Source: Nitrosopumilus sp. (GTDB lineage Archaea > Thermoproteota > Nitrososphaeria > Nitrososphaerales > Nitrosopumilaceae). From it: a DNA stretch of 64,000 nt. The stretch covers positions 1,216,001 through 1,280,000 of the forward strand of contig OY759726.1 of NCBI GenBank assembly GCA_963662625.1, written 5' to 3'. Positions 20,399-58,772 of the stretch are shown piece after piece (position 1 is the stretch's first letter; each line of letters starts with the position of its first letter). The translations under genes were made by a program, and so were the position numbers. The notes under the pieces were generated by a model. That model was not told the origin of the DNA and searched no databases. It worked only from the letters and a program-made list of their open reading frames with translations.

Positions 20399-21202
20399 AT
20401 GATCACGATCAAGATCGGCGGAAGCGTCGTGGACGACCTGCACCCGTCGTTCATCCCGGACGTCAAGAGGGCCGCCGAGCGCGAGGGGCTCGTGCTGGTC
20501 CACGGCGGCGGCAAGGAGGTGACCAAGGTCTGCGGGCAACTGGGAAAGGAGCCGCGGTTCGTCACGTCGCCAAGCGGCATCAGGAGCAGGTACACGGACA
20601 AGGAGACCGCGGAGATCTTCACGATGGTGATGTCCGGCAGGGTGAACAAGGCCATAGTCAGGATGCTGCAGGGGAGCGGGATCGACGCGATCGGCCTCTC
20701 GGGCGTGGACGCCAGGGTGATCCGGGCGGACAGGAAAAAAAGGCTGCTCATCGTAAACGAGAAGGGGAGGAAGCAGGCCATCGACGGCGGGTACACCGGG
20801 AAGATCACCGGGATAAACTCGGGGCTCATCAGGTCCCTGCTGGGGCAGGGGCTGACCCCCGTCATATCGCCGATCGCGCTAAGCGAGGAGTGCGACTTCC
20901 TGAACGTGGACGGGGACCGGGCCGCGGCATACGTGGCAGGCGGCGTGGGGGCGGACAGGGTGATCTTCATCACTGACGTCGACGGGCTGCTGGTGGACGA
21001 CAGGCTCGTCCCGCGGCTGACGCTGGCCGGGGCGAGGGAGATGCGGCCGAAGATCGGCCCCGGGATGGAAAAAAAGATCCTCGCCTCCACCGAGGCGCTG
21101 GACATGGGGGTCGGGGAGGCGCTGATCGCCAACGGGCAGAGGGAAAACCCCATATCCTCGGCGCTCGCACACGAGTCATGCACGGTGATCCGGGATGAGT
21201 GA
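20399..21202 (+). CDS. lysZ: [LysW]-aminoadipate/glutamate kinase (ArgB/LysZ)
   Basis: KIGGS, VHGGG, LNVDGDRAA. Confidence 0.95.
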   Translation: MITIKIGGSVVDDLHPSFIPDVKRAAEREGLVLVHGGGKEVTKVCGQLGKEPRFVTSPSGIRSRYTDKETAEIFTMVMSGRVNKAIVRMLQGSGIDAIGLSGVDARVIRADRKKRLLIVNEKGRKQAIDGGYTGKITGINSGLIRSLLGQGLTPVISPIALSEECDFLNVDGDRAAAYVAGGVGADRVIFITDVDGLLVDDRLVPRLTLAGAREMRPKIGPGMEKKILASTEALDMGVGEALIANGQRENPISSALAHESCTVIRDE

Positions 21203-22370
21203 AGACAGGTACATGGGGAACCTGTACCAGAGGTTCCCCGTCACCGTGGAGAGGGGGGAGGGCGCCCGCGTGTGGGACGCCGACGGCAGGGAGTACATCG
21301 ACTGCATGGGGGGGTACGGCGTGGCCCTCGTGGGGCACCGGAACGCCAGGGTCAGGGACGCGATAAAGGGGCAGGCCGACAAGATCATCACCGTCCACAG
21401 CTCGCTGTACAACAAGACGAGGGAGGAGTTCCTGGAGGTCCTGATCGGCCTCGCGCCGCCCGGGCTGACCCAGGTCCACCTCAACAACAGCGGCGCCGAG
21501 GCGGTGGAGGCGGCCATAAAGTTCGCGAGGAAGTTCACCGGGAAGAAGGGGATGGTGGCCATGAAGGGCTCCTACCACGGCAAGTCGCTCGGGGCCCTGT
21601 CCGTCACGTTCAACCCCAAGTACCGGAAGGCCTTCGAGCCGCTCGTGGAGCGGGTCACCTACGCGCCGTTTGGCGACATCGACGCGCTGCGCGAGGCGGT
21701 CGACGGGGACACCGCGTTCGTGATCCTCGAGCCGATCCAGGGGGAGAGCGGCATCAACGTGGCGCCCGACGGGTTCCTGCAACAGGTGAGGGGGCTCTGC
21801 GACGAAAAGGGCATACTGCTGATCTTCGACGAGATCCAGGCGGGGCTGGGCCGGACGGGGCGGATGTGGGCGTGCGAGCACTGGAACGCGTTCCCCGACA
21901 TCCTGTGCCTGGCCAAGGGGATAGCGGGGGGCGTCCCGATGGGCGCGACGCTGGTGCGGCCGGACATACTCGCCGCGATGGCCAAGGGGGAGCACTCGTC
22001 GACGTTCGGCGGGAACCCTCTGTCGTGCGCCGCCGGGACGGCCGCGCTCAGGGCGTTGACCGAGGACGGCCTGGTCGAGAACTCCGAAAGGATGGGGAGG
22101 CTCTTCCGGGAGGGGCTGGAGGGGCTGAGGGAGAGGCACCCGATAATCCGGGAGGTCCGGGGCAAGGGCCTGATGATAGGGGTGGAGCTCAGGTTCGACG
22201 TCAGGGAGATCCTGATGGCGCTGATCAGGGAGGGAGTCCTGATGCTGTACTCCGGCAGGAACATCCTGCGGATCCTGCCGCCGCTGGTAATAACCGGGGA
22301 GGAGGTTGCAAAAGTTTTACAAACCCTTGATTCCGTACTTACAGCGGAGGAGCGGAAGAGGAATGCATAA
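21195..22370 (+). CDS. lysJ: [LysW]-aminoadipate semialdehyde aminotransferase (ArgD/LysJ)
   Basis: NSGAEAVEAA, DEIQAGLGRTG, AKGIAGG, HSSTFGGNP. Confidence 0.95.
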   Translation: MSEDRYMGNLYQRFPVTVERGEGARVWDADGREYIDCMGGYGVALVGHRNARVRDAIKGQADKIITVHSSLYNKTREEFLEVLIGLAPPGLTQVHLNNSGAEAVEAAIKFARKFTGKKGMVAMKGSYHGKSLGALSVTFNPKYRKAFEPLVERVTYAPFGDIDALREAVDGDTAFVILEPIQGESGINVAPDGFLQQVRGLCDEKGILLIFDEIQAGLGRTGRMWACEHWNAFPDILCLAKGIAGGVPMGATLVRPDILAAMAKGEHSSTFGGNPLSCAAGTAALRALTEDGLVENSERMGRLFREGLEGLRERHPIIREVRGKGLMIGVELRFDVREILMALIREGVLMLYSGRNILRILPPLVITGEEVAKVLQTLDSVLTAEERKRNA

Positions 22371-22782
22371 GGACAAGACCGACGCCAAGATAATAGCCTA
22401 CCTGAAGGACAACTCCAGGGAGTCCTTCGTGGACATCGGGAAGAGCCTGGGCCTGTCCGAGTCGGCCATACGGAGGAGGGTGAAGAACCTGACGGAGAAC
22501 GGGACGATCAAGAGGTTCACCGTCGAGATCAGCGAGGAGGAGGCCACCAGCGCAATCGTCCTGATCTCGGTGGACTCTGCGACGGACACGGCGAAGGTCT
22601 CGCTGAAGCTCGCAAAGCTGGAGAGGGTGAAGACCGTCTACGAGATAACGGGCCAGTACGACATCACCACGATAATCAGCGCGCCGAGCATATCGGGGAT
22701 CAACTCGTGCATCGACGCGCTCAGGAAGATCCCGGGAGTGATGGACACCAACACGGTGATAATACTGAGGAAGATCGCCTAG
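22363..22782 (+). CDS. lysM: Lrp/AsnC-family regulator LysM
   Basis: N-terminal HTH (GLSESAIRRRV), EITGQYD; located within the lys cluster. Confidence 0.85.
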   Translation: MHKDKTDAKIIAYLKDNSRESFVDIGKSLGLSESAIRRRVKNLTENGTIKRFTVEISEEEATSAIVLISVDSATDTAKVSLKLAKLERVKTVYEITGQYDITTIISAPSISGINSCIDALRKIPGVMDTNTVIILRKIA

Positions 22783-25101: not shown

Positions 25102-26244
25102 ATGGACCCCACGTTTACCGTCACTCCGCGGCTCGCAGTGAAGATGCTGGAGACGGCCCTCCGCCTGTACACCCCGTCGCTGGACGAGAAGCCTATGGCG
25201 GAGTTCCTCGAGGACAAGTGCGACGACCTGGGATTCTACGACATATCTGTAGACGAGGTCGGGAACCTGATCGCCAAGAAGGGCTCGGGCTCCCCGCGAA
25301 TAATGCTCTGCGGGCACATGGACGTGGTGCCCGGCAAGGTCAGGGTGCGCAGGGAGGGCGACGCGCTCTACGGGAGGGGGGCCTCCGACGCAAAGGCGCC
25401 GCTCATGGCGATGCTGCTCGCGGCTGCGTCCGTCGGGGAAGGAGACGGGACGATCACCTTCGTGGGGGCAGTCGACGAGGAGGGCAACGCGACCGGGATC
25501 AAGAACCTGGTGAAGAAGGAGATGGGCGTGGACTATGCGGTGTTCGGCGAGCCCAGCGGGGTCAGGCAGGTGACCATCGCGTACAAGGGAAGGCTGGCGA
25601 TCAACCTGATGATAAACGTGGGGGACAGCTCGCATGCCAGCGCTCCCTGGCTCTCCAAGAACGCGATAGAGGAGACGATGATCTTCTCGAGGGAGCTCAG
25701 GGAGGGGCTGGAGTCCGGCCAGGAGGGCAGGACCAAGGGCATGCTCCTCACTGCCACCCTCACCGAGATGGCCGGCGGGACTAGCCACAACGTGACGCCG
25801 AGGGAGTGCAAGTCCGTCTTTGACATACGGATACCGGTGGACATGGACTGCAAGGGCGTGGAGCAGAGGATCTCGATACTGGTAAAGGACATCGCCCGGA
25901 GGCGCGGGGTGGAGGCGTTCTACTCCATACTGGACGAGACCGAGCCCTTCGAGGCACCGCACGACTCCCCCATAGTCAGGGCGCTGACCCTGGGGATATG
26001 CGACGTGGAGAACGCCAGGCCGACCCTGATCCGGAAGACGGGCACGGGCGACATGAACGTACTCGGAAACCAGTGGAAGATCCCGGTAGTCACGTACGGC
26101 CCGGGCGATCCGCACGAGTCCCACACGATCGACGAGAAGGTCTCGATCGACGAGTACCTCCGCGGAATCGAGATCCTGAAGCGGACCCTGGCCCACCTGA
26201 AGAGGCTCCACGACAGGAAGGCGCGCCGATGCTCTGGTTCGTAG
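25102..26244 (+). CDS. lysK: [LysW]-lysine/ornithine hydrolase (M20, ArgE/LysK)
   Basis: GHMDVVPG, GRGASDAK, DEEG, TGTGDMN. Confidence 0.93.
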   Translation: MDPTFTVTPRLAVKMLETALRLYTPSLDEKPMAEFLEDKCDDLGFYDISVDEVGNLIAKKGSGSPRIMLCGHMDVVPGKVRVRREGDALYGRGASDAKAPLMAMLLAAASVGEGDGTITFVGAVDEEGNATGIKNLVKKEMGVDYAVFGEPSGVRQVTIAYKGRLAINLMINVGDSSHASAPWLSKNAIEETMIFSRELREGLESGQEGRTKGMLLTATLTEMAGGTSHNVTPRECKSVFDIRIPVDMDCKGVEQRISILVKDIARRRGVEAFYSILDETEPFEAPHDSPIVRALTLGICDVENARPTLIRKTGTGDMNVLGNQWKIPVVTYGPGDPHESHTIDEKVSIDEYLRGIEILKRTLAHLKRLHDRKARRCSGS

Positions 26245-27266
26245 GCCTGGGGATATCCGCCCCCGGGTCGATCCCGGCCGAGGCGTCGGGGATCCTCTCG
26301 GCGGCTGACGTGGTGTACGTGGAGCAGTTCACCAGCCCGGTCGCCGCGGCGGACCTCGAGCAGATCGGGGAGGCGGCCGGCGGCCGGCTCAGGCTTGCAA
26401 AGAGGTGGATGGTGGAGGACGGGAAGGAGATCCTGGGCAACGCGCGGGACAAGAACGTCGTCCTGCTCTCGTACGGGGACCCGTACGTCGCCACCACGCA
26501 CGCGGAGCTGAGGACGAGGGCCGCCAGGGAGAACATAGAGACCCGCTCGGTGCACGCCTCGTCGTCCCTGACGGCGGCGGTGGGGGAGTGCGGCCTGCAC
26601 TTCTACAAGATCGGGAGGATCGCCACGGTAATGGGGGACCCGAAGTCGCTTGCCACCCCCTACTACATCGTCTACAGGAACGCCGTCGAGGGAAACCACA
26701 CCGTCCTGCTGCTGGAGTACGACCAGGACGGGGGCTTTTTCCTTGACCCGAAGGACGCGCTAGGCGCCCTGGTGCGCGCCGAAGAGGGGCAGGGGAGGGG
26801 CGTGGTGGGCCCCTCCACCTTCGCCGTCGTGGCGTCAAGGATAGGGTCCGGGGACCAGGCCGTCACATGCGGCCTGGTGTCGAGCCTGGAGGGAGCCGAC
26901 CTGGGCAGGCCGCCGCATACCCTGATAATCCCGGGCCGGCTGCACTTCACCGAGGCCGACGCGCTGAGGGCACTCTGCACCTGCCTGGACGAGCCCCGGG
27001 ACAACGAGGTGCGGAAGATCTCCTCCCAGATGATGGAAAAGTACGTCCCGATGGTGAGGGAGGCCCTCGAGGAGGTGAGGCCGCGCTGCGAGGGCAGGGG
27101 GTACGACGGCATACTGGAGAACGCGGAGCTTTACGTGCGCGACGCCGAAAAGTTCCTGGAGGACGGCCAGGACGAGGTGGCCATACTCAGCATAGGCTAC
27201 GCCGACGGGCTGGTGGACGCGCTGAGGCTCGCCACGGGGATGGATCCGAAGTCATCGATGAATTAA
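26229..27266 (+). CDS. dph5: Diphthine synthase with C-terminal DUF357-like domain
   Basis: GDPYVATTH, GLHFYKIG, LHFTEADAL, SIGYADGLVDAL. Confidence 0.92.
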   Translation: MLWFVGLGISAPGSIPAEASGILSAADVVYVEQFTSPVAAADLEQIGEAAGGRLRLAKRWMVEDGKEILGNARDKNVVLLSYGDPYVATTHAELRTRAARENIETRSVHASSSLTAAVGECGLHFYKIGRIATVMGDPKSLATPYYIVYRNAVEGNHTVLLLEYDQDGGFFLDPKDALGALVRAEEGQGRGVVGPSTFAVVASRIGSGDQAVTCGLVSSLEGADLGRPPHTLIIPGRLHFTEADALRALCTCLDEPRDNEVRKISSQMMEKYVPMVREALEEVRPRCEGRGYDGILENAELYVRDAEKFLEDGQDEVAILSIGYADGLVDALRLATGMDPKSSMN

Positions 27267-29336: not shown

Positions 29337-30479
29337 CTATGAAACGCCAAGGTCGCCGAACGTCTTCAGCTTCAACCCGTCCGAGTTGGACAGCTTTGCG
29401 ACCCTGTGGCCTATGACCACCTGGATCCCTGCCTTCTTGGCGCCCTCCAAGAGCCTCTGGGTGATTATGCCGTCCAGCAGGAGGTACTTGATCCCGGACT
29501 GGGTAGAGAGCTTGCTGACCACCTCGCTTATCGGGACCTTGAAGATCTCCTTCTGCTTGTCGTCAAGCGCGACCGCCTCGAGCGTCTCGTTCAGTTTCGG
29601 GTATATCTTCGAGACCATGTCTGCCATCGGCTTGTCGGACTCGTTTTTCAGCGTGGGCGCGGCCTTGCCGTGCTTGATCTCGTCGGCGACGGGCCTGAGG
29701 ATCTCGTCTATGCGTTTCGGGCTGAGCTCCTCCACCTCCATCCCGTTGTCCGCCCTAAGCTCGTAGTCGATCGGGACGACGGACCTGAGCTCCTTCAGGA
29801 TGAACCCGCCGGCGCGGTCGCCGTCGGTGAATGCCACCACGGTGTCCTTGGAATTGCACAGCTTCTTGATGGACTCGTCGATCTTCGCGCCCTCGATGGC
29901 AATCGAGTTGCCGTACCCTGCCCTAAGTAGGTTGATCACGTCGGCCCTCCCCTCGACCAGGATGATCCAGCCCGACTCCATCGCGCTCGGGCCGCAGGCC
30001 AGCTTGGACGGCCCGTACGCCGAGATCTTCCTGCCGTCCCCGGCATGTACGTCCTTCAGCATGCTCTCCCCCTCGCTGACGGTCTTTGTCGCCCAGCGTT
30101 GCTTGATCTCCTTTGCGCGCTTTACGATGTCGTCCTTCTTCGCGGCCCTGACGTCGTCGATCGAGTCGAGCTTGAAACTGCATTCGAACGGCCCGACCTT
30201 GTCGATGCTCTCTATGCCCGCGGCGATCAGCGCGCATGTGTCGATATCGGTGCTCATGGGGATGATCACGGCCCCGGAAGTCGTGTTGGAGGTGGTTCTG
30301 GAGGTTACCTCTATGCGGCCCACCTTGGACACGCGCTGCAGCTCGTTCAGGTTCATCTCCGGGCCCAGCAGTCCCTCTGTCTGGCCGAAGATTGCGCCGA
30401 TTATGTCTGCTCTTTCAACGAGCCCGTCAACTTCGTAGGAAAGCTTAACATGATACTTGACAATTCCCGATTGAGGCAT
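29337..30479 (-). CDS. dnaG: Archaeal DnaG-type primase / exosome-associated protein
   Basis: GAIFGQTEGLLG, VEGRADV, TDGDRAG (TOPRIM). Confidence 0.95.
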   Translation of the reverse strand: MPQSGIVKYHVKLSYEVDGLVERADIIGAIFGQTEGLLGPEMNLNELQRVSKVGRIEVTSRTTSNTTSGAVIIPMSTDIDTCALIAAGIESIDKVGPFECSFKLDSIDDVRAAKKDDIVKRAKEIKQRWATKTVSEGESMLKDVHAGDGRKISAYGPSKLACGPSAMESGWIILVEGRADVINLLRAGYGNSIAIEGAKIDESIKKLCNSKDTVVAFTDGDRAGGFILKELRSVVPIDYELRADNGMEVEELSPKRIDEILRPVADEIKHGKAAPTLKNESDKPMADMVSKIYPKLNETLEAVALDDKQKEIFKVPISEVVSKLSTQSGIKYLLLDGIITQRLLEGAKKAGIQVVIGHRVAKLSNSDGLKLKTFGDLGVS

Positions 30480-30723
30480 AAATTATTCATCTCCTTAATT
30501 ATCATACAGTTCCATCTCAGTCTCTATATATGAGGGTATCGCAAGAAATGCCGCAAAAACCCCGAAAATTGCCCAAAATCGGGCGTTTTTTGGCCCGGCT
30601 GCCACGGCGCGCAGTCTATTGCTGGCCCGGTTTTCAGACAAAAAACAACCCGCAAAGGCAGATTTGGGCAGGGCTGTGCCACAGCCTGGCTGGGCGGGAC
30701 GGATTAAAAATGGGGGTTGTGGG

Positions 30724-31074
30724 TTACTCGGTGCTAAACGAGTGGCCGCACGAGCAGGACTTTACGACGTTCGGGTTGTTGATCTTGAACCCCGAGCCCA
30801 TGAGGCTCTCGATATAGTCCACGTTTGCACCTTTCAGGTGATCCACGCTGTAGCTGTCTACCAGGAGCTTGACCCCGTTCTCCTCCATGACTAGGTCGTC
30901 CTCTTCGGCCGCCTTCTCAAAGCCCATTCCGTAGGACAGGCCCGAACACCCGCCGCCCTGGACGTATACGCGCAGGTACTCGGGTTTCTCGGCTTCATCC
31001 TTCATGAACTCCTTGATCTTTTCGGCGGCCTTTGGCGTGACCGTGATCATCTTCTGGGTCTGTTCAGATGCCAT
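30724..31074 (-). CDS. A-type Fe-S cluster carrier (IscA/ErpA/HesB family)
   Basis: GGGCSG and SCSCGHSF motifs. Confidence 0.95.
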   Translation of the reverse strand: MASEQTQKMITVTPKAAEKIKEFMKDEAEKPEYLRVYVQGGGCSGLSYGMGFEKAAEEDDLVMEENGVKLLVDSYSVDHLKGANVDYIESLMGSGFKINNPNVVKSCSCGHSFSTE

Positions 31075-31131
31075 ATTGACTAAGGCCGCGTTAAATTATA
31101 ATAACCTTTTTGTCAGCCCTCGCCCGTCAAT

Positions 31132-32167
31132 TGTAGGGAAAGTCGGTCCGCATCGGATCAAGAGGACGGTAGCCGGCCATTTTAGGCTGTACCGATCACG
31201 GAAGGCCATGACAGGAAGACTTGCTGAGGGGTCCCGGAAGTACCTGGTCAGGCAGCGAGAGAAGGGCGTGCCGTCATCCCAAGTGGCGCGGGATCTGGGA
31301 ATCGCCGCCAGGCACGTGCGGGGGCCGTGGGCGGGGTTCCCGGAGGCCGGAACGGCGGCGGCGGGGACGGGCAGGCCGCGCGCCTGCATGACCGCCGCCA
31401 TGATGCGGCTGGTCACCGGCGCCCACGGGAGGCGCCCTGCGGGCGTGGTGCGCACCGCGAGGCGCCCCAGGAGGGACCATGATACAAGCTGCCGCCCCGC
31501 ATGCCGGATACTGGAGAAGGCCGGGGCGGCGGCCGCGTCTGCCGCAAAACCGGGGAGGCGCGAGCGGGCGCGCCACGGGCGCAAATGCCCGGACGCCACG
31601 TGGCACGCCGGCTGGCACGGGACGAAGGACCCCCGGTTCAGGGGCCCCCGGCTGGTCGCGTACCCGGGCGGCGCCCCGCGGTGCGCGGTGGCCGCGCGCG
31701 TGCTCGCGCAGGCCACGCCGGGGAACGCCGTGCCGGCGCCCAGGGACGCGATCGGGCGGTTCGGCACGCCGGCCACCGTGCTCCCCGGCAACGGCCCGTG
31801 CTTCGTGGGCCGGAACGGACGCAGGAAGGCCCCTCCCCGGCCGTGGAAGCCCACCGCGTCCGGGGCGGAGCTGCCGGGCCTCGGGATCGAGCTCATAGAC
31901 GCCAGGCCGCACCGCCCCCAGACCAACGGGAAGGCCGGGAGGTTCTTCCGGAGCGCGGGGGACGGGACATGGCGCCACGGGAGCATGTCCGAGCACGTGG
32001 CGTACTGCAACGAGGACAGGCCGCGCTTCTCCCCGGACACCGGCAACTGCCAGACCCCGCTGAAGGCCTTCCATGGCAAGTAGGCCGTGGCAGCGATCAG
32101 GGAGAGCAACCCGGGATGGATGGAGGCGGAGGCGGATGGCTAGCGGACCGACTTTTCATACACTACA
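31132..32167 (+). mobile_element. Degenerate IS481-family insertion sequence
   Basis: TGT...ACA ends; imperfect IRs (TGTAGGGAAAGTCGGTCCG / CGGACCGACTTTTCATACACTACA); 15-bp direct repeat GTCAGCCCTCGCCCG at 31112-31126 and 32168-32182; rve-like ORF with RPHRPQTNGK. Confidence 0.85.
31208..32143 (+). pseudogene. IS481 transposase relic; catalytic acidic residues replaced by Gly; internal TAG at 32081
   Basis: WHAGWH, YPGGAPR, LPGNGPCF, GKAGRFF read as degenerate WHxDW, YLDDASR, LSDNG, GKxERFF. Confidence 0.8.
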
Positions 32168-32348
32168 GTCAGCCCTCGCCCGGGGCGTGCGTGCACGGCC
32201 GTCACACGGGGAGCGATCCGGACGGCCCGCGTTCCCCGGGCAGCAGCCCACGCGCGTGCGTGCGACGCGGCGCTGCTGGACGCGGCGTGGCCGGCCCGGA
32301 GGCGCCTAGGCCGGGACTGACCTGGCCCCCGCATACTGGCTTGCCGGG

Positions 32349-32455
32349 GTGATGCGCCGGCGGCCGCCCCGGCAGGACAGTGACCCGCCACGGGGTCGAA
32401 TCCCGCGCAGGGCTCCGTGTGATGCGCCGGCGGCCGCCCCGGCAGGACAGTGACC
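32349..32455. repeat. Two identical 37-bp direct repeats separated by 33 bp
   Basis: GTGATGCGCCGGCGGCCGCCCCGGCAGGACAGTGACC at 32349-32385 and 32419-32455. Confidence 0.9.
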
Positions 32456-32764
32456 GCGGCCCCGGGACGCTCCCCCCAGGCGGCCATGCCACGGGATCCT
32501 CGCACGATGCGGCGTCGGATCCGGATCCCCGGCCGTGTGGGGAGCCGCGCGGCCACCGGCGAACCGCACGGCACCGCCACCCGGCGAAATCACTGCTGTC
32601 CCGGCAGCCATCCCCTGACGCCACCCCGTGGCGGCACTGCCTCGGCTGGGGGCACGTTCCGCACGGCCTCCCTCCAAGCCCGCCGCCACGCCGGGAACGG
32701 CCGATCGCCCCGAAGATCGATCCAAATAGCAATCGAAAAATACCGGTCAGCATCCAGTCCACTT

Positions 32765-32868
32765 GCAGAGGTATCGAAGCCCGGTCAACCGAGAAGGACT
32801 CAAGATCTTTCAGTTAGGAAATCCTTTCTCTTAGGAGTTCGTGGGTTCAAATCCCGCCCTCTGCACCA
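32765..32868 (+). tRNA. tRNA-Leu(CAA) with ~16-nt intron (about 32805-32820) and encoded CCA
   Basis: Acceptor stem GCAGAGG/CCTCTGC, anticodon stem AAGGA/TCCTT with CAA at 32801-32803, long variable arm, GGTTCAAATCC T-arm. Confidence 0.92.
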
Positions 32869-32955
32869 TTGTCCGGCGGCCGCGAGGCCGACAGAGTTGA
32901 ATAAACCCGGACGCCTGCATTTTTCTTACCGTGGCCCGGGGAACGCCAGCTCGCG

Positions 32956-33078
32956 TCATGCGGTGATTGCCTTTACTTTGGTCACCGAGTGGTTTGAAAT
33001 CCGCTTGTGCATGTCTGCAAGCTGCTTCTCTTTAAAGGAAAGACTGCACCTGAAACATCTCCAAACGACCTCGGACAT
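32956..33078 (-). CDS. 40-aa C2H2-type zinc-finger microprotein
   Basis: Not in ORF track; MSEVVWRCFRCSLSFKEKQLADMHKRISNH...; AT-rich TATA-like sequence upstream. Confidence 0.7.
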   Translation of the reverse strand: MSEVVWRCFRCSLSFKEKQLADMHKRISNHSVTKVKAITA

Positions 33079-33322
33079 GTAGTATATAACGCACATTTTG
33101 CTTATAAATATATTGAATGAAGGATCCGTATCCGCCCCGATTGACGGATATCGTCCGTCATTTCGTCATTCCAGCACGAAAGCGCACACCGTTGCAGCTG
33201 CGCGCAACATGGGGTGCGGACGCCGCCGCGATCGACATCCTGCGGGGCTTCCCGGAACTTTTCGCCGCGCCCCCGGCCCGCCGATCCAAAGGGTTTAGAA
33301 ACAAACCGCCACGACACCAGTC

Positions 33323-33943
33323 ATGGCAGATTTTTTTGAGCTCTTCGCCGAGTACTCGTACTTTGGGATATTCCTAGTGCTGGTGGCAATCAACGCGTCC
33401 CCAGTCCTCATGCCGCCCACCTGGATAGTCCTCTCGTCGTTTTACGCGTTTGATCCCTCCTTGGACCCGCTCGCCCTTGCGCTGGTCGGGGCGACGGGGG
33501 CCACCGCGGGACGCTTCGCCCTCAAGCGGGCCAGCGGGATGTTCAGGAAGTTCGTGGCGCCCGAGCAAAAGTCCAACCTGGACGTAATCGGGGACTTCCT
33601 GAACCGGAAAAAATACGGCTACGTCGCGGCGTCGTTTCTTTTTGCGGCCACCCCGCTGCCAAGCAACATGCTTTTTGTCGCCTACGGCCTCATGCGCGCA
33701 AGGGGAATCGGCCTGTACCTGGGCTTCTGGGCCGGGCGCGTCCTGTCCTACTATGTCATGGTAAGCATAAGCGGCATAGTCCTCACGCCATTCCTCCAGA
33801 TCTTCGAGGAGCGCTACATCGGCATCATCGCGGCCGACGCGCTGGGGGTGGGCGTGGTGATCCTGTTCGCCTCGATCCGCTGGGATCTGCTGATAACCCA
33901 GAGGAGGCTAAAGTTTGTAAGGCCGCGGCTGTGGAGGTTCTAG
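33323..33943 (+). CDS. Membrane protein (DedA/VTT-like)
   Basis: Multiple TM helices, FAATPLPSN motif. Confidence 0.75.
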   Translation: MADFFELFAEYSYFGIFLVLVAINASPVLMPPTWIVLSSFYAFDPSLDPLALALVGATGATAGRFALKRASGMFRKFVAPEQKSNLDVIGDFLNRKKYGYVAASFLFAATPLPSNMLFVAYGLMRARGIGLYLGFWAGRVLSYYVMVSISGIVLTPFLQIFEERYIGIIAADALGVGVVILFASIRWDLLITQRRLKFVRPRLWRF

Positions 33944-33944
33944 C

Positions 33945-34564
33945 GTGGAAGTGTCGGAATCCCTGGCGCGCGAGGTAAGGTCCAGGATGGCAAACGACCC
34001 ATCTCACGACTTCGGCCACGTGATGCGGGTGTGCGGCAACGCCAAAAGAATATGCCGGGACGAGGGCGCCGACGAGCGGCTCGTCCTCGCCGCCGCCATG
34101 CTCCACGACCTCGTGTCCCTCCCAAAGTCGGACCGGCGCCCGGGCCTCTCCGCTGCAGAAAGCGCCCGGGAGGCGGGGCGGATCCTGCAGAGGCACGGCT
34201 TCACGCCCGCCGAGACGCGGGTGGTCTGCGACGCCATACGCGACCACAGCTTTCGGGAAACGCTGCCCCGGGTTCCCGCGAGGGCAGGATCCTCCAGGAT
34301 GCCGACCGGCTCGACGCCATGGGCGCCATAGGCATAGCGCGGGTCTTCGGGGTGAGCGGCTCCGAGGGGCGGCCGTTTTACAACCGGGACGATCCCTTCT
34401 GCACGGGGCGGGAGCCGGACGACAAGGCGTGGGCGCTGGACCATTTCTACAGCAAGCTGCTGAGGCTGGAGCCTATGATGCACACTAGGTACGGGAGGGC
34501 CGAGGCCGCGAAAAGGACCGCGGTGCTGAGGGATTTCCTGGCGCGGCTCAGGGAAGAGATCTAG
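33945..34564 (+). pseudogene. HD-domain phosphohydrolase, frameshifted
   Basis: SHDFGHVMRV...MLHD in one frame, QDADRLDAMGAIGIAR in another; rejoined by one extra T at the TTT run 34251-34253 (DHSF|SGN). Confidence 0.82.
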
Positions 34565-48272: not shown

Positions 48273-51200
48273 TCACTTGCTTGCCCAGTCTCTGGCAACT
48301 ACCTCTGCCTGACGCAAAACGGTTTCAGTTGCCTTTTTCTGCCTGTCCGGCGGATAGCCGTGTTTTTTCAGTATCTTTTTTACCTTCAAGCGGATCGCTG
48401 CCTGGACGCTCTCCCTGCGCGTCCAGTCGATCGTGACGCTGTTTCTTATCGTCTCTGTTAGCTCAACGGCGATCTTTCTCAGCGTCTTGTCTCCCAGGAT
48501 CCGTACCGCGCTGTCGTTTACCCCCAAGGCATCGTAAAACGCTATCTCGTCTTCGCTCATGTTTTCTGCCTTTCCCCTGTTCTTTTCATCCCTTACCTGT
48601 CTTGCAAGATCTATCAACTCTTTAATCACCTGTGCCGCCTCCACGCTCCTGTTCGTGTATTTCCTTATTGACCTGTCAAGCAACTCCATGAAGGACTTGC
48701 CTTGGACGATGTTTTTCTTTGAGATGATTCGGATCTCGTCGCTTAGCAGCTTCTTGAGTGCCTCAAACGCCAGATTACGCTGCGGCATCTCCCTGACATC
48801 GTTGAGGAATCCTTCGGAAAGGACTGACATCTCCGGCTTTTGAATCCCTGCAGCCTCGAAGATGTCGATTATCCTGTCAGATATAACCGCCTTTGAGAGG
48901 ATCTGTCTTATCGCGGTGTCGAACTTTTCCCTCCTCCCTTTCTCGGTTTCGGTAGTTTTGGCTATTGCGGCCTTTATTGCCTGGAAGAACCCCACATCAT
49001 CCTTGATTTTCATTGCCTTGCGGTGTGGGACGGCAAGTGAGAACGCCTTTATCAGTGCAGATGTCTCCCTGTAGAACCTCTCCTTTCCGTCCTTTTCTTT
49101 CAAAATGTGCTCCATTGCGTTTGGAACGAACGATATTCTCTCACTGGACCTTAACTCGAAGAATTTTTTATAGTCAAACCCGTGGAACATGTCCCTCACA
49201 ACCTCGTATTTTTCAAGCATAAGGGACACCGCGGCGTCTTGATCAAAGGTTGGCCTTCCCCTCCCGCCGCTTGCAGTATAGTCGGAGAGGGCTTTTCTCA
49301 GATCTGCCCCCACCCCCATGTAGTCTACTACCAAGCCCCCTTCCTTGCCGGGGTACACCCTGTTTACTCTGGCAATCGCCTGCATGAGCGTGTGCCCCCT
49401 GATCGGCTTGTCAAGATACATGGTGTGGAGGGAGGGCGCGTCAAACCCCGTAAGGAACATGTCCCTCACTATGAGGATTCTTGGTTTCTGGCCAGGTTTC
49501 TTGAAGCTGTCCCCGATCTTTTTTCTTCTCCTTTTGTTTCGTATGTGTTCCTGCCATTCCTTGGGATCCGAAGCAGATCCTGTCATGACCACCTTTATCG
49601 TACCACGGTCGTCTTTTTTGTCGTACCACCCGCGTCTGAGATCGACGATCGCATCGTGCAGGCTGACGCATATCCTTCTTGACATGCAGACAACCAGCGC
49701 CTTGCCTTCAAGCACTGCCGTTCTTTCCTCAAAATGGTTTACTATGTCGCTGGCAACCCTCCTGACCCTGGTTGGCGAGCCAACCACCTTTTCCACCCTC
49801 GACCACTCGCTCTTTAGCCTCTCCTTTCCTACGACCTCCTCCCCCTCGGTCACGCCTTCGAAATCCTTGTCTATCTTCGGCCTCTCCTCGGGCTTTAGCT
49901 CCAGTTTTGCAAGCCTGCTCTCGTAATAGATCTTCACCGTGGAGCCGTCGTCCACTGCCTGTTCGATGTCGTACGCGTCCACATACTTGCCAAAGACGGC
50001 AGGGGTGGACCTGTCTGCCTCTTCTATGGGCGTTCCCGTAAATCCGATAAACGACGCGTTGGGCAGAGCGTCTCTCAGGTATTTTGCGTATCCGTACGTT
50101 ATCAGAGTCTTGTCTTTTTTGCTCAGGATTCTTGCGGAGAACCCGTACTGGCTTCTGTGCGCCTCGTCAGCAATCACTACGATGTTGTCACGTCCGGACA
50201 AGACCTCGTGTTTCTCCCCTTCCTCTCCTGGAAGGAACTTCTGTATCGTTGTAAACACCATGCCTCCCGAAGCCACCTTGAGAAGCCTTGTAAGGTCCTT
50301 TCTGCGTTCGGCATGTATCGGTGCCTGCCTCAGGATGTCTTGGCACCTCCCAAACGTTTCATACAGCTGGTCATCAAGGTCGTTCCGGTCGGTCAGAACT
50401 ATAATGGTGGGGTTGTCAAGTTCTCTTGCCAGAATCCCGGCATAAAATATCATGGTGAGGGATTTTCCGGATCCCTGGGTGTGCCAGACTATGCCTGCCT
50501 TCCTGTTGCCCTTTCTTGCCTTGGTGGTGGACTCTACTGCCTTGTTTGCCGCCCAATACTGGTGGTATGCGGCAAGTTTCTTTGCGGCCACATTGTCTTT
50601 CTCAAACACGACAAAATTCCTCACGATGTCCAAAAATCTTTTCCTGTCACACATACCCCGCAGCAAAACCTCTACCTCGGTCAGGCCCTTCCTTGGCTCC
50701 CCGCCATCGATGGTCTTCCACCGCATGAACCTTTCCTTTACTGAACTGATGGTTCCTGCCCTTGCCTCTATGCCGTCGCTTATCACCAGGATTTCGTTGA
50801 ATCTAAACAGGTATGGAATTTGATCCATGTATGTCTGGAATTGGTCGTATGCAGCCCAGATGTCTGCACGCTCGTCGGCCAGGTTTTTTAACTCAAGTAT
50901 TAGCAGCGGGATTCCGTTGACAAACAAAACAACGTCCGGCCTCCTTTCGACGCTGTTTTCTATAACGGTGAACTGGTTCGTAGCCATGAAGTCGTTGTCT
51001 TTGATCTTACTTGGGTCAAATTCGAAGAGCCAGACCTTCTTGTAGCGTTCCCCGTCTTTTGCCTTGACCGGAACGTCCACTCCGTCCACCAGCATCCTAT
51101 GGAATTCCTCGTTGTCTGCGACAAGCTTCTGGCCAGCACTACGCCTGACCTGCCTGATTGCGTCCTCTATTGCGTATCCCGGGACAGCCGGGTTGATTTT

Positions 51201-51377
51201 ATTTAGGGCATCACGAAGCCTGCCTGCCAGTATGACTTCCTTGTAATTGTCTCTCAATGCTTGGCATCCATCTGGAAGATAGTCCTCGTTGTCTCCGCGG
51301 ATTATCTCATGCCCAAGATCTCTCAGAATGGACAGGACGCTTTCTTCCACGTCTGCTTCGGTGATTGCTTTTCTCAT
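48273..51377 (-). CDS. hsdR: Type I restriction enzyme subunit R
   Basis: RPDVVLFVNGIPLLILELK, HTQGSGKS, DEAHRSQY, FTGTP, QAIARVNR. Confidence 0.97.
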   Translation of the reverse strand: MRKAITEADVEESVLSILRDLGHEIIRGDNEDYLPDGCQALRDNYKEVILAGRLRDALNKINPAVPGYAIEDAIRQVRRSAGQKLVADNEEFHRMLVDGVDVPVKAKDGERYKKVWLFEFDPSKIKDNDFMATNQFTVIENSVERRPDVVLFVNGIPLLILELKNLADERADIWAAYDQFQTYMDQIPYLFRFNEILVISDGIEARAGTISSVKERFMRWKTIDGGEPRKGLTEVEVLLRGMCDRKRFLDIVRNFVVFEKDNVAAKKLAAYHQYWAANKAVESTTKARKGNRKAGIVWHTQGSGKSLTMIFYAGILARELDNPTIIVLTDRNDLDDQLYETFGRCQDILRQAPIHAERRKDLTRLLKVASGGMVFTTIQKFLPGEEGEKHEVLSGRDNIVVIADEAHRSQYGFSARILSKKDKTLITYGYAKYLRDALPNASFIGFTGTPIEEADRSTPAVFGKYVDAYDIEQAVDDGSTVKIYYESRLAKLELKPEERPKIDKDFEGVTEGEEVVGKERLKSEWSRVEKVVGSPTRVRRVASDIVNHFEERTAVLEGKALVVCMSRRICVSLHDAIVDLRRGWYDKKDDRGTIKVVMTGSASDPKEWQEHIRNKRRRKKIGDSFKKPGQKPRILIVRDMFLTGFDAPSLHTMYLDKPIRGHTLMQAIARVNRVYPGKEGGLVVDYMGVGADLRKALSDYTASGGRGRPTFDQDAAVSLMLEKYEVVRDMFHGFDYKKFFELRSSERISFVPNAMEHILKEKDGKERFYRETSALIKAFSLAVPHRKAMKIKDDVGFFQAIKAAIAKTTETEKGRREKFDTAIRQILSKAVISDRIIDIFEAAGIQKPEMSVLSEGFLNDVREMPQRNLAFEALKKLLSDEIRIISKKNIVQGKSFMELLDRSIRKYTNRSVEAAQVIKELIDLARQVRDEKNRGKAENMSEDEIAFYDALGVNDSAVRILGDKTLRKIAVELTETIRNSVTIDWTRRESVQAAIRLKVKKILKKHGYPPDRQKKATETVLRQAEVVARDWASK

Positions 51378-52708
51378 TTTTTGGCTCCTGTCGGCACACG
51401 GATTTTACCGGACATTAATTTTGGTACAAGCAAGTCTCTTAATTCAACTAGTATTTTGATTTGCCGTTCGTAGTGTTTGATTTGGGACCAAATAGGATAA
51501 ACAGTTTTATGAAATAAGTCTATTAGAAATCTAGGAGGTAGTATAATTGGTAATTTTCTAAACGTGCTTCTCCCAATCTCTAAAAAAGTAGTCCCATTTG
51601 CATTTTCAATGAATTCCTTAACTCTGTGTTTAAAATTACAGTAGAGATAAAACAGATCAGTATCGTTTCTAGTTTCAATGATTATGAATCCTTGATTTGC
51701 TGCACAGGGAATCGTGTTTATTGCAAAATATCCAATACTAGCTCTAGATGTCATAAATATTGAATTCTCTGGATGCAGTTTAGAAGCGCAGTTATCTAAT
51801 CCTTTTTCCGTGATTTTTCTTACGGTGTCTTTAAGAAACACATGATCTGATTTTGTAAGATCGGATGGAACAGCCCAGCTGATGCCTCCTTCCCAAAAAC
51901 TTGGGTTTTTTGTTGATGGTGTCCCGCCTCCAAATGTATCACATACTTGCATTATTGATTTAATCCCCCATCCCTTTGGGACATACTTTTCCAATTCATC
52001 ACTATACATCATTTCCCCGCCGGATGATCTGTACGGCATCCCTTTTTCGTCTGGGAACTCATAGTCGATAAACCACGATTTGAATACTGCTTGGGCCATC
52101 CACTCTAAGGTATTGTTCATTTTATGGTTTAACTCGATTTTGGCGTCTAAGTCGAATAGGATTTTTGCAATCTTCTGTTGTTCCGTAAGTGAGGGTAGTG
52201 GTATAAACAACCGAACAACATCCCTTTGATATAAATGGGGGATAACGGAACCTTCGATTCGACTTTTAACTAATTCTTTAAAGAAATTAGAATTAAAATA
52301 TTGATAGAGATAACCTTGATGCAACCTGCTTGATGAGCTACGAATTAGGAATATTCCAGAAGCCAAAGTTGCCAGTTCTGGAAGCTGTGTTATGTAGGCA
52401 GTTTTTCCAATAGTCCCATCTTTCGTCATCAATATGTCGTTCAATTTTACAGAAATTTCTTCTGACTCATCATATCTCCATTTGGGAACTCTTAAACAAT
52501 TACTCCAATCCACTTTGCCATTTTTTATATCCGGGCCATTGATAATAATTACGCCGCTATTCCCAAATTCAGATTTTTTGAGTCCTTTCCAACCAATTCG
52601 CCCCTTAATGAAAACCAATTCTTCCAATTTGTTTAGTCCCCACTCTTCGGGAATAACTCCTATCTCAGTTTGCTTGAATTTATTATTCTGCCCCACCAAT
52701 TGTCTCAC
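51374..52708 (-). CDS. hsdS: Type I restriction enzyme specificity subunit S
   Basis: Two TRDs, PLPSLTEQQKIA conserved region, LRDLLVPKLMSG. Confidence 0.95.
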   Translation of the reverse strand: MRQLVGQNNKFKQTEIGVIPEEWGLNKLEELVFIKGRIGWKGLKKSEFGNSGVIIINGPDIKNGKVDWSNCLRVPKWRYDESEEISVKLNDILMTKDGTIGKTAYITQLPELATLASGIFLIRSSSSRLHQGYLYQYFNSNFFKELVKSRIEGSVIPHLYQRDVVRLFIPLPSLTEQQKIAKILFDLDAKIELNHKMNNTLEWMAQAVFKSWFIDYEFPDEKGMPYRSSGGEMMYSDELEKYVPKGWGIKSIMQVCDTFGGGTPSTKNPSFWEGGISWAVPSDLTKSDHVFLKDTVRKITEKGLDNCASKLHPENSIFMTSRASIGYFAINTIPCAANQGFIIIETRNDTDLFYLYCNFKHRVKEFIENANGTTFLEIGRSTFRKLPIILPPRFLIDLFHKTVYPIWSQIKHYERQIKILVELRDLLVPKLMSGKIRVPTGAKK

Positions 52709-53654
52709 CTTGAATCGTTAGAATCTCGTTGGCGCTCTCGTCAAATAATACATTTACACCCGCTTCCCTATCAGAAATTTTGATTTTACTAACAAAACAC
52801 ACCATATTTTCAAAATACGCTGCACTTTCATCTAGCGATGAAAATATCTCTTTAAGTAGAATTGGAGAATCAATTATGTCTTCAGTTAAAGAAATAACAC
52901 TAACGTTTTCTGCCCGAATATCAAACTCTGACACAATCATTTGTTCTAGCTTGGAAATTAGATATTGCTTCCTAGCTATTGCATCGTATTTTTTTTCACG
53001 TATTTTTTTAGCATACGTTGACTTTAGTTCAGATGTTAGTTCATACATTGATTTAATTATTTTAAAATTAATGTCAACGATCATACAGCCATCGAAATCC
53101 TTATCATGTGTGAATAAAATCACATTGGAACAACCATTTTTGATGCTGTGCTTGATTAATGTTTCCCAAATAATGGCATCTTTGAAGCCAGAGTTTTTAC
53201 CAACTTTGAAAGGAGGTTTTGACTCAATAACCCCTTGAACTAATGAATCTAGTACAGAAGCTTTTTTGCCATCTTCAATTTTGATGGTTGTAATGCTATT
53301 CTCTTGTAGAAACATCGTGACTTTTGGATTGAGGTATTCAACGCAATCAAAGGAATCGTCAGGGAGATCAAAGTCTGGAATGGAAATATTTTTTAAAGTT
53401 TTGAGTCTTTTAGATGCGGAAATTAGATCCACTTTGTCTTTTTCATAAGCTTTCTTTTTTTGCACAAGTAATTCTTGCAAGGTCATATCAGCAACTGCCA
53501 AAATTATGTTTTCCGATAGGCTATTTTCCTCAATAAAATTTTTTAGTGTTTTAAATTCATGATCAAAACCAAAGCTATCATAACGCGGAGATTTGCCAAA
53601 CATGCTTCGGATTTTGTTTGTATCCATCAGGATGAGAGTTTTATCAGAATTCAT
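52683..53654 (-). CDS. PIN-domain protein (DUF4935-like)
   Basis: LMDTN...GFKDAIIWET...FTHDKDF acidic PIN residues; very AT-rich. Confidence 0.8.
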   Translation of the reverse strand: MNSDKTLILMDTNKIRSMFGKSPRYDSFGFDHEFKTLKNFIEENSLSENIILAVADMTLQELLVQKKKAYEKDKVDLISASKRLKTLKNISIPDFDLPDDSFDCVEYLNPKVTMFLQENSITTIKIEDGKKASVLDSLVQGVIESKPPFKVGKNSGFKDAIIWETLIKHSIKNGCSNVILFTHDKDFDGCMIVDINFKIIKSMYELTSELKSTYAKKIREKKYDAIARKQYLISKLEQMIVSEFDIRAENVSVISLTEDIIDSPILLKEIFSSLDESAAYFENMVCFVSKIKISDREAGVNVLFDESANEILTIQGETIGGAE

Positions 53655-55184: not shown

Positions 55185-55251
55185 GCCACCGAGTCAGTGT
55201 CATAAAAATACACCCCTGCAGGCAGTAGGAATGATCCAAATGCGAGTATTA

Positions 55252-56889: not shown

Positions 56890-57203
56890 ATAATGTTGCT
56901 TAATAAGGTGTATTCAGAAGTTCTTAGTGGCTTTCTGTAACACTTTTGATTGTTACACTTTCTCTTTATTTTCGTTAAGATGTCTGAGTGTATGTTGTTG
57001 TATTTGCGATCTACTCTACGCCTCTGTTAAGAATGGTTTTGAATATGCCTGTTAACCCCACAATTTTTTATCTGGAAGAAACACTATGGAAAGTTCAATT
57101 GAGTTCTACTCAACAGTTTTGGGAATATGCTTGAAATCGTTGTGAACAACTTGATTTGACATGGGATCAACTCCCTATGTTTTTGAATACGTGATTAGGC
57201 GTA

Positions 57204-58580: not shown

Positions 58581-58772
58581 GGTCTTTTTCTGGATCTATT
58601 TAGCTTTTTCTGGAGCGAAAATTAAGCGAAATGTGTGCCGGATTGAGATGGGATTCATGCTCGTGTTTGCCCAAAACTTCCACTATGACTAATTTGAGTT
58701 TGCACTTCACTTCACTGAGCAGTGTCGGCAGTATCCTTACCCGTTCCTCTTATCTGTGCATAGCCGGGCACC

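Follow-up and report, generated by a model that had tools for sequence, protein, structure and literature searches.

How can a transposase gene lose all three of its catalytic residues and still read as an open frame over nearly its whole length? This question is raised by an insertion sequence (IS) of the IS481 type in a 64,000-nucleotide stretch of the genome of Nitrosopumilus sp. (GenBank assembly GCA_963662625.1, contig OY759726.1, positions 1,216,001 to 1,280,000), which was analyzed as a whole and is called the window here (G000:C1:1216001-1280000 in our numbering, G000 being the host genome). The host genome is a single contig of 1,858,698 bp with 63.4% G+C and is 99.5% complete. We refer to the element in the window as W and to the intact copy that served as its reference, at G000:C1:1674241-1675281, as c1674. 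Our answer, which we consider likely, is that W decayed under a genome-wide, lineage-specific process that turns A:T into G:C, hits paired adenines on opposite strands, and is not aimed at transposons.

Aligned with c1674, W shows 41 A>G, 34 T>C, 5 G>A, and 3 C>T changes and 4 transversions, which amounts to 75 A:T>G:C transitions against 8 in the reverse direction, and its G+C content is 0.724 vs 0.661 in the intact copy. The original prediction, made from the letters of the window alone, had held that the frame was kept without obvious indels and with a single stop, that nearly every recognizable deviation from typical IS481 motifs was an A>G or T>C change, and that all three catalytic acidic positions had become glycine. 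Comparison with the intact copy bears this out: there are 0 indel columns in 1041, the only stop is a TAG at 32081-32083, 75 of the 87 differences are A:T>G:C transitions, and the D/D/E triad, intact in c1674 and in a further copy, c720, is all Gly in W. The two proteins differ at 77 residues, with E>G (9), S>P (7), D>G (7), L>P (6), Y>C (5), and V>A (5) leading the list, and the conserved YLDDASR now reads YPGGAPR, both aspartates having become Gly. By codon position, G+C went from 0.608/0.524/0.904 in c1674 to 0.678/0.656/0.907 in W; third positions were already saturated, and the changes therefore landed on codon positions 1 and 2. The frame is still open because A>G and T>C changes never yield TAA, TAG, or TGA from a sense codon and because there are no indels; the sole stop in W came from an unrelated G>T change.

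W is an IS481 relic rather than an active member of the family. The genome holds five full-length copies and about twenty fragments of this IS481-like element (30 DNA matches to W in a genome search, of which 5 are full length with 90-92% identity to W; 27 high-scoring segment pairs in a blastn search with the intact copy). The open frame of c1674 has 311 codons and matches Pfam rve (E=4.6e-12, 46.5 bits; cut-off 32.6), and W matches rve_3 only, at E=0.099. The best NCBIfam model is IS481 (NF033577) for c1674 (164.1 bits, E=4.9e-48), for W (61.3 bits, E=1e-16), and for the outgroup protein P0002 (173.6 bits). Because all three scores fall below the curated equivalog cut-off of 224 bits, the IS481-like elements here appear to be a divergent archaeal branch. 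They resemble the IS481 family (NF033577; Pfam rve PF00665) in their single DDE/rve frame, short imperfect inverted ends, target duplication, and multiple copies, and differ from it in that the element scores below the equivalog cut-off and W has no DDE triad. Target duplications in the IS481 family are 4-15 bp long (ISfinder), which puts the 15 bp of W at the upper end. Among 8000 candidates scored, 799 proteins are related to the transposase at E<=0.001, and the one named match is a transposase of a Nitrosopumilaceae archaeon; relatives of the element occur in 9 of 41 related genomes and 38 of 401 genomes of the family. The closest outgroup copy (L051, G386:C1:1346446-1350381) has 79% nucleotide identity, 59% G+C, and 0.76 G+C at third codon positions (GC3) in a locus of 40% G+C, which suggests that GC-rich IS copies may move horizontally into low-GC relatives.

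The copies are not equally decayed. In W, c1364, and c1615 each catalytic position is Gly, and these three copies share another 25 derived sites; other copies carry just one of the three catalytic changes. Either one dead copy was moved in trans or the three copies took parallel hits; the copies with a single change would favor parallel hits. The reference c1674 is itself degraded, with the conserved N-terminal RRLW motif of the outgroup proteins now RGPR. Directly beside c1674 lies an open 384-amino-acid frame of an IS4/IS5-type transposase (L002:254-1405, minus strand; Pfam DDE_Tnp_1, E=1.3e-21), and the genome has many such IS clusters.

The direction of change was read from 11 outgroup coding sequences from other genomes, which have 59-79% nucleotide identity to c1674. 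A site was polarized only where the outgroups back one of the states found within the genome, and most of the sites so polarized are at codon positions 1 and 2. This left 265 polarized polymorphic sites, with 157 dropped (105 ambiguous, 38 without an outgroup, 11 weak, and 3 without a shared state). Polarized changes comprise 98 A>G, 71 T>C, 25 G>A, and 20 C>T and 70 transversions, that is, 169 vs 45 transition sites; 0.65 changes per site at A/T and 0.145 at G/C imply an equilibrium of 0.82 G+C. A skew of this size is not due to chance. All 22 of 22 copies are skewed in the same sense (A:T>G:C vs reverse, 78:4 in W, 80:7 in c1615, 75:1 in c392183, and 25:6 in c1674). Tabulated against the intact copy and the outgroups, the spectrum is GC-ward, neither symmetric nor AT-biased, and a GC-directed mutational process, which the original prediction had proposed, is upheld by the outgroup polarization. 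There is no strand bias: the fraction hit is much the same at A (0.53) and T (0.58) sites. The fraction of A sites hit varies with context, from 0.66 in NAC through 0.61 in NAG and 0.49 in NAT to 0.40 in NAA, and GAC, GAG, and TAC are hit most often; 5'-NAC-3' was rejected as the sole context rule, as the other NAN classes are also hit (0.40-0.61).

The changes come in pairs. We counted doublets in our own alignments of five IS families; the counts are cells and not events, so that inherited changes are counted repeatedly. A T>C at position i together with an A>G at i+3 was found 432 times vs 73 expected from each copy's own hit rates, and other spacings were at 0.5-2.5 times expectation, +4 being the highest at 2.5. 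Ancestral 5'-TNNA-3' cells had both ends changed in 407 cases, the T only in 52, the A only in 43, and neither in 1415; for TCGA at the site level, 24 sites are double, 2 are A-only, and 1 is T-only. Expressed as both/(both+single), the doublet share is 0.76 at spacing 3. At eight other spacings it is 0.06-0.39, and in the reverse polarity, A...T, it is 0.12-0.26. Shared ancestry is no explanation for this coupling, because ancestry would couple sites at any distance. In copies 96-99.8% identical to their reference, 4 of 4, 2 of 2, 14 of 16, and 8 of 10 changes lie in doublets. We infer that a doublet is a single event, made by an agent with two-fold symmetry.

The sequence preference of the doublets lies mainly in the two middle bases. 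Doublet frequency is 42% with CG in the middle, 22-28% with CC or GG, 8% with GC, and 3% with TA; the flanks matter little, the wider logo giving a weak G-TCGA-C preference. An A is hit in 0.24 of cells with T at -3, and in 0.14, 0.10, and 0.09 of cells with C, A, and G there. A sequential model, in which a first hit makes a C at -3 that attracts the second, was rejected on these numbers (0.14 for an ancestral C at -3 vs 0.24 for T). A test for depletion of TCGA was uninformative: on a mononucleotide basis TCGA is not depleted here (observed/expected 1.56), nor is it in high-GC relatives, and such counts are dominated by coding constraints. Of the 75 A:T>G:C transitions in W, 28 make up 14 spacing-3 doublets, seven of them TCGA>CCGG, and 8 more make up four spacing-4 doublets. 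Of the 37 TNNA sites that c1674 offers, W has 14 changed at both ends, 1 at the T only, 1 at the A only, 20 at neither, and 1 otherwise. The catalytic changes belong to this pattern: V-D > A-G and I-E > A-G arose in TCGA doublets, and S-D > P-G in a spacing-4 doublet. The doublet structure also explains why D>G or E>G is so often immediately preceded by L>P, S>P, or V>A.

The doublet footprint of the IS relics is also found in ordinary genes, which is the new observation here. Fourfold-degenerate third positions of adjacent codons are 3 bases apart. A doublet process at work on the chromosome would be expected to leave T and A together at such pairs that escaped it and C and G together at those it struck, in the T...A polarity alone. 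To test for this, we used 617 non-repeat open reading frames (ORFs) of at least 150 codons in which GC3 exceeds G+C at first and second positions by >0.1. In these 617 genes the odds ratio (TA x CG)/(TG x CA) is 4.66, vs 1.85 for the reverse polarity, a polarity ratio of 2.53 (z about 10.6). This ratio drops to 1.28 for sites two codons apart and to 1.08 for sites three codons apart; for adjacent codons it holds in all five GC3 bins (1.8-5.2). By middle dinucleotide the gene odds ratio runs from 10.05 (CG) to 2.94 (GC), and it follows the doublet frequency in the IS relics (Spearman 0.93, p=0.0009, n=8 dinucleotides). We also polarized 53 core orthologues at fourfold sites where two low-GC outgroups agree. 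Pairs that were ancestrally T3,A3 (n=140) include 42 that are now CG, 9 TA, 6 TG, and 4 CA, an odds ratio of 15.8 (Fisher p=1.3e-4), and ancestral A3,T3 pairs (n=84) include 20 GC, 1 AT, 9 AC, and 2 GT, an odds ratio of 1.1. In single-copy DNA outside ORFs the polarity ratio at spacing 3 is 1.43, compared with 1.01 at spacing 6. Since ordinary genes carry this footprint, we conclude that the process is most likely not aimed at transposons.

Seven relatives served as controls. Polarity ratios are 0.84 in G005 (62 ORFs), 0.29 in G015 (69 ORFs, with few counts), and 1.12 in G002 (23 ORFs), and, from 200 kb each of other high-GC relatives, 1.09 in G014, 1.30 in G008, and 0.94 in G033. The footprint is absent from these 6 of 7 relatives, and the seventh, G003 (likewise 200 kb), is ambiguous; four other high-GC relatives (G014, G008, G003, and G033) thus show no clear doublet footprint. 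Among the genomes tested, the process is most likely peculiar to this lineage. Composition also sets this genome apart from its congeners: the dnaG locus has 62.4% G+C here vs 41.5% and 39.2% in two congeners and about 35% in most of the family, and the DnaG protein is 84-85% identical to the congeners' proteins. Longer pieces of relatives have 48.2% (G002, 27 kb), 39.7% (G001, 6.5 kb), 35.2%, and 33.7% G+C. In the 53 orthologues, fourfold sites that were ancestrally A are now G in 849 cases, C in 525, A in 216, and T in 42 (216 of 1632 kept), and those that were T are now C in 438, G in 337, T in 65, and A in 54 (65 of 894 kept); 87% of ancestral A sites and 93% of ancestral T sites have changed. 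The crude GC3 of the genes is 0.84.

Other repeats in the genome are consistent with accumulation over time. Repeats make up 13.6% of the genome by self-comparison (249 segments of at least 200 bp and at least 75% identity) and 18.6% by a more sensitive search, and four other IS families show the same GC gradient among their copies. In fam1422, copies of 63.3% and 77.3% G+C differ by 199 A:T>G:C changes, 1 reverse transition, and 4 transversions, and two younger copies by 44:0:0; up to 199 hits thus fall within 1.4 kb. The same three counts are 70:9:4 in fam1263, 63:8:24 and 44:1:14 in fam1277, and 120:24:77 in old copies of fam1373, a family of which seven copies are 99.3-100% identical. When 57 IS copies are compared, the fraction of sites hit rises with the fraction of other differences (rho 0.72), which fits hits that build up in place, clock-like and with time. 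A regional effect was rejected, the hit fraction of these 57 copies being unrelated to the GC3 of neighboring genes (rho 0.08).

Within the window, positions 59471-60836 hold a near-intact copy of another IS family (about 1.37 kb, about 21 copies), 99.6% identical to G000:C1:297327-298699; 4 A:T>G:C changes forming two TNNA>CNNG doublets, plus 1 other difference, separate the two. It adjoins a low-GC island at about 50500-59400 (36-53% G+C), which has DNA matches in 20 of 400 other genomes of the family, the best 63-76% identical, and is probably a recent foreign insert that is still un-ameliorated. With a best match of 76%, the island was too distant for a spectrum and was dropped as a young non-IS test object.

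Several findings weigh against a process as simple and uniform as the one proposed. The set of 617 genes came from a crude ORF filter (GC3 highest) and not from annotation. Singletons called by majority rule run the other way (70 A:T>G:C vs 118 G:C>A:T); we rejected them as a measure of direction, as the outgroups show that the majority state is often derived. Changes private to one IS481 copy are also balanced, at 63 A:T>G:C, 83 G:C>A:T, and 72 transversions, with 0 doublets. Four of the nine "private G:C>A:T" changes of c1674 are two TNNA sites that c1674 alone has retained, so part of this balance is polarity error; the rest shows a background of other changes and speaks against a purely one-way process. 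The lack of private doublets could, we would argue, follow from hot sites being struck very densely and repeatedly: each copy has 20-50% of its A/T sites changed and each site is covered by about nine copies, so that a hit in one copy will mostly be matched by a hit in another. The polarity ratio of 2.34 in G003 arises from a low reverse value (its T...A odds ratio is 1.27), and at two codons' distance it is still 1.83. At fourfold sites, 862 of 2149 changes from A/T to G/C are transversions (40%; A>C 525, T>G 337), vs about 2% or less in the IS relics, and because of this either the doublet process is not the sole cause of high G+C or codon-choice selection reshuffles G and C. A second GC-ward force on the genes (an earlier regime, codon-choice selection, or conversion) and reshuffling by selection are the two options. 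The congener G002 has raised GC3 without an excess of transitions (A>C 21 vs A>G 10 in 7 genes), which hints at an older, different GC-ward component. Among copies, the ratio of A:T>G:C to other differences ranges from about 1:1 to 40:1, a spread not expected from a perfectly uniform rate. No doublet at spacing 3 occurs among the 115 differences between the copies of a non-IS duplicate of 6.9 kb (98.3% identical), in a sequence where few neutral TNNA sites are expected. Finally, the spectrum of non-IS pseudogenes was not comparable: a tblastn search with ORFs of at least 100 amino acids from 160 kb of two relatives gave 143 with a match, of which a handful, too few for the purpose, were partial or contained stops.

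Some of these points would sit well with a defense-like hypermutation of transposons, foreign DNA, or repeated DNA, be it a mirror image of repeat-induced point mutation (RIP) or an editing of transposition intermediates; the original prediction had offered a RIP-like silencing of mobile DNA as one possible cause. The IS spectrum is extremely pure (199:1:4 and 44:0:0) and that of fourfold sites in genes mixed, with its 40% of transversions; intensity is uneven among copies; private IS481 changes, presumably made in situ, are unskewed in number and free of doublets; and the 6.9-kb non-IS duplicate has none either. A silencing of this kind is nevertheless contradicted by the footprint and sequence preference shared by 617 single-copy genes and 53 orthologues. 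The coupling is there in the genes (4.66 vs 1.85), in the polarized orthologues (15.8 vs 1.1), and in single-copy DNA outside ORFs, and the ranking of middle dinucleotides in genes matches that in the relics (rho 0.93). Many identical young IS copies are untouched, and the hit fraction rises with other divergence (rho 0.72), as it would with time spent in the chromosome. We therefore regard a transposon-aimed defense as unlikely, and prefer the genome-wide process acting on genes and relics alike.

Ordinary directional pressure fares worse, and we think it quite improbable. It would consist of independent, unrepaired deamination of adenine, as under nitrosative stress, or of uncorrected replication errors where EndoV, NucS, MutS, or MutL is missing. 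EndoV (PF04493), NucS (PF01939), and MutS (PF00488) were indeed not found in the host genome, two UDG-family genes that would hold C>U in check are present, and the changes are strand-symmetric transitions with modest context dependence. The inventory covered EndoV and NucS in the host genome and across 24 genomes of the family, and MutS in the host genome alone. Also present in the host genome are one HhH-GPD glycosylase, one Ham1 (these two were searched in the host genome only), one Y-family polymerase, and one dCMP-deaminase-type gene. The repair inventory named in the original prediction thus gave a mixed result. Missing EndoV and NucS agree with it; their loss is not specific to the lineage, since searches of 24 genomes of the family failed to find EndoV in 20 and NucS in 22, most low-GC relatives and both low-GC congeners (about 40-48% G+C) among them. 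The Y-family polymerase (24 of 24 family genomes) and the dCMP-deaminase-type gene (22 of 24) were rejected as candidate causes on the same ground, being present across the family, and no gene compared with relatives distinguishes the lineage. Spontaneous or nitrosative deamination left unrepaired, which the original prediction had put forward, is further ruled against by the doublets, because separate events cannot give opposite-strand changes exactly three bases apart: independent lesions cannot yield 407 double vs 95 single TNNA states.

GC-biased gene conversion, whether between the IS copies or with DNA coming from outside, would explain why derived G/C states are shared against any single tree (pattern wwSwS at 10 sites and SSSwS at 19 sites) and why D/E>G states form a mosaic among copies. 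Conversion can only spread existing alleles, and the GC-richest copies hold private changes of their own (12 in c392183 and 8 in W); changes are almost only transitions, with transversions to G or C not favored; and conversion predicts neither a fixed, polarity-specific coupling over 3 bases nor a coupling at synonymous sites of single-copy genes. We give it very little credence.

TCGA is a palindrome of the kind marked by adenine methyltransferases. Systematic A>G miscalls on both strands of such methylated palindromes would resemble doublets, and we dismiss this artefact of assembly or base calling as scarcely conceivable, since contigs of four runs are letter-identical to the window in the listed single-copy pieces, identical contexts are changed in some IS copies and unchanged in others, the genes are normally conserved (DnaG, 84-85% identical to the congeners'), and the footprint in genes is confined to synonymous sites.

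The runs in question are four public runs, from three samples of one study, whose contigs agree with the window in the listed single-copy pieces between 14492 and 31183; one contig crosses the left junction of W, and no population variants (other letters) were found in these pieces of the four runs. Within W the runs do differ from the window, through contigs of paralogous copies, and with W as the reference nearly all of these differences read G>A or C>T; several lie 3 bases from one another. This agreement supports the sequence and not the biology, and the runs, all from a single study, may include the source of the assembly. At 25956-26581, contigs of 3 of the 4 runs join the ends and skip 624 bases (depths 243, 148, and 38), and other contigs run through; the discrepancy is due either to a length variant or to a repeat that was collapsed within a gene.

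The coordinates of W and its parts are given in the table below. The original prediction had recognized the relic correctly and placed it slightly short, at 31132..32167, and the element is 31127-32167: TCAAT ahead of TGTAGGG (31132) is common to all five full-length copies, which start with TCAATTGTA and end with ACTACA. The arms of the inverted repeat at 31132-31151 and 32143-32162 are 20 nt long and 90% complementary. The target duplication of c1674 is at the same place, with 14 of 15 positions matching in the alignment. The perfect duplication of W is uninformative on mutation, since its two copies contain only 8 A/T positions.

Features of copy W in the window, with positions counted from the first letter of the window
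Feature	Position	Strand	Remarks
IS481-like element, copy W	31127-32167	+	1041 bp, 72.4% G+C; aligns end to end with 4 other full-length copies at 87-94% identity
Left 15-bp target-site duplication, GTCAGCCCTCGCCCG	31112-31126		100% identical to 32168-32182; adjoins the element end
Right 15-bp target-site duplication, GTCAGCCCTCGCCCG	32168-32182		Found by repeat search, 15/15; abuts the element end
Left terminal inverted repeat	31127-31151	+	Imperfect 25-bp end; 31132-31151 pairs with 32143-32162
Right terminal inverted repeat	32143-32167	+	Imperfect 25-bp end
Remnant transposase frame, non-functional	31208-32083	+	291 codons + TAG
First catalytic Asp codon, now GGC (Gly)	31610-31612	+	Within doublet TCGA>CCGG at 31608/31611; WHVDWH > WHAGWH
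Second catalytic Asp codon, now GGC (Gly)	31787-31789	+	Within 4-base-spaced doublet TCCGA>CCCGG at 31784/31788; LSDNGS > LPGNGP
Catalytic Glu codon, now GGG (Gly)	31937-31939	+	Within doublet TCGA>CCGG at 31935/31938; GKIERFF > GKAGRFF
Premature TAG	32081-32083	+	G>T at 32081; GAG in all other full-length copies; 19 codons short of the family's natural stop
14 TNNA>CNNG doublets and 4 doublets at 4-base spacing	31500-32043		From comparison with the intact copy

The kilobase 31001-32000 is the most GC-rich of the window (0.708). To the left of W lies an intact Fe-S assembly gene on the minus strand (30727-31074; Pfam Fe-S_biosyn, E=5e-22). Directly to its right is a 37-nt perfect direct repeat (32349-32385 and 32419-32455, 70 bp apart), in a non-coding stretch of about 70% G+C in which the overlying ORF has no Pfam match. 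ARAGORN found no transfer RNA genes in 30000-34000. The segment 6541-6600, which had been singled out for its composition, does have 51 of 60 G+C, and is plausibly intergenic, as it was called, being located upstream of a gene of the L7Ae family (domain start near 6885). Positions 21195-22373 hold the counterpart of a 393-amino-acid protein of two relatives (82% and 79%, full length, by tblastn) with one in-frame stop, which might reflect a freshly formed pseudogene, recoding of the codon, or merely the alignment. Elsewhere in the genome, G000:C1:540318-541253 and 19 other single-copy stretches (L129-L148) have long open frames with G+C of about 0.72-0.80 at all codon positions and 55-65% Gly/Ala/Arg/Pro. 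No Pfam match at E<=0.05 was found for 19 of these 20, and the match of the remaining one is far below the cut-off and was taken as chance; they may be deeply decayed genes or elements held open by a mutation spectrum that makes no stops.

Under the genome-wide process that we favor, A:T would be converted to G:C by transition across the whole chromosome, preferentially as 5'-TNNA-3' to 5'-CNNG-3' with TCGA as the best substrate. In functional genes, selection would leave hits standing chiefly at synonymous third positions. A dead transposase would be free at all positions, and hits would pile up at codon positions 1 and 2, where D and E codons would become G codons, L and S codons P, T codons A, Y codons C or H, and V codons A, with loss of the DDE triad. 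The two adenines of TNNA are on opposite strands, each displaced to the 3' side, and in B-form DNA opposite-strand nucleotides so displaced lie face to face across the minor groove. The hit rate is twice as high where a partner adenine is present, and there is weak enrichment at spacings 2 and 4, which suggests one agent with two-fold symmetry and some play. One example is a dimeric enzyme that would span the minor groove, reach the two adenines, and make a G-like base of each. Because lesions on opposite strands segregate, having both changes on one chromosome needs either that the opposite T is replaced before replication or that a repair patch is made on one strand. The former might be done by a glycosylase that treats hypoxanthine:T like a G:T mismatch; alternatively, both changes might be written on one strand in a single short repair patch. 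Our order of preference, held with low confidence, is a dimeric adenine-converting activity, then a short error-prone patch, and last a bifunctional chemical. That the lineage carries or meets a two-fold symmetric "editor" of adenines in double-stranded DNA, which drove the genome from about 40% to 63% G+C and ground down its transposons on the way, is a tentative proposal that we put forward as possible, and at clearly lower confidence than the process itself.

Parts of this picture have precedents. Sueoka, and Lawrence and Ochman, are said to have described directional mutation pressure and the amelioration of foreign DNA toward host composition. As in that scheme, unconstrained DNA here drifts to the genome's own bias (the IS equilibrium of 0.82 is close to the GC3 of 0.84), and weakly constrained sites change in the same GC-ward direction genome-wide. 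Doublet coupling and dinucleotide preference are common to relics and genes, whereas transversions from A/T to G/C are not (40% vs about 2%). What differs from the scheme is that the bias is GC-ward and comes with doublets that no model of independent point mutations predicts. Fungal RIP changes C:G to T:A, lowers G+C, creates stops, and is triggered by duplication. The likeness to RIP is that a single class of transition, in a short context (here TNNA), has struck transposon copies many times over and that frames are destroyed without indels; the differences are that A:T goes to G:C, G+C is raised, no stops are possible, and single-copy genes are also imprinted. In mutL strains of Escherichia coli, Lee and colleagues reportedly found in 2012 a transition-dominated spectrum rich in A:T>G:C with a few-fold bias. 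Mismatch-repair-deficient bacteria resemble our case in having almost only transitions, an A:T>G:C excess, strand symmetry, and some context dependence, and MutS and NucS were not found here. Their bias is few-fold compared with tens- to hundreds-fold here, they have no described opposite-strand doublets, and the low-GC relatives lack a detectable NucS likewise.

The motif of colibactin has the opposite polarity (A...T, AT-rich), and its outcome is T>N and single-T deletions; the changes here are clean A>G on both strands, and nothing suggests such a compound here. A colibactin-type lesion joins two opposite-strand adenines a few base pairs apart (PMC12154741 and others). This makes it the only known kind of paired-hit agent that we can name. 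Passages on sponge-associated Thaumarchaeota give 47-67% G+C in several symbionts vs 32-34% in free-living marine relatives and an enrichment of transposases in some (PMC6697440, PMC7848895), and one of them says that the mechanism behind high G+C needs further study (PMC6697440). These passages contain no substitution spectrum and no doublets (PMC6697440, PMC7848895). In a limited literature search, covering largely the beginnings of abstracts, no opposite-strand A>G doublets and no natural double-strand-DNA adenine deaminase were described. W itself is an ordinary dead IS; the process that it recorded is unusual and, as far as the literature was searched, undescribed.

For this organism, dead transposons are a built-in mutation-accumulation record, in which the change is mutational in kind: transitions only, with protein function destroyed. 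A practical warning follows for such genomes, where a long open frame does not speak for function, given that stop codons cannot arise from A>G and T>C changes. Hershberg and Petrov, and Hildebrand and colleagues, reportedly found in 2010 that an AT-ward bias is usual in prokaryotes, and GC-ward neutral change runs counter to it. If the symmetric editor is real, it would be a new kind of natural mutational mechanism, a natural A-to-G activity on double-stranded DNA; as an enzyme it would be of direct interest for base editing, and as a chemical or a property of a polymerase it would leave a new mutational signature to seek elsewhere. The signature in the genes ties the composition of this genome to a specific, testable molecular process.

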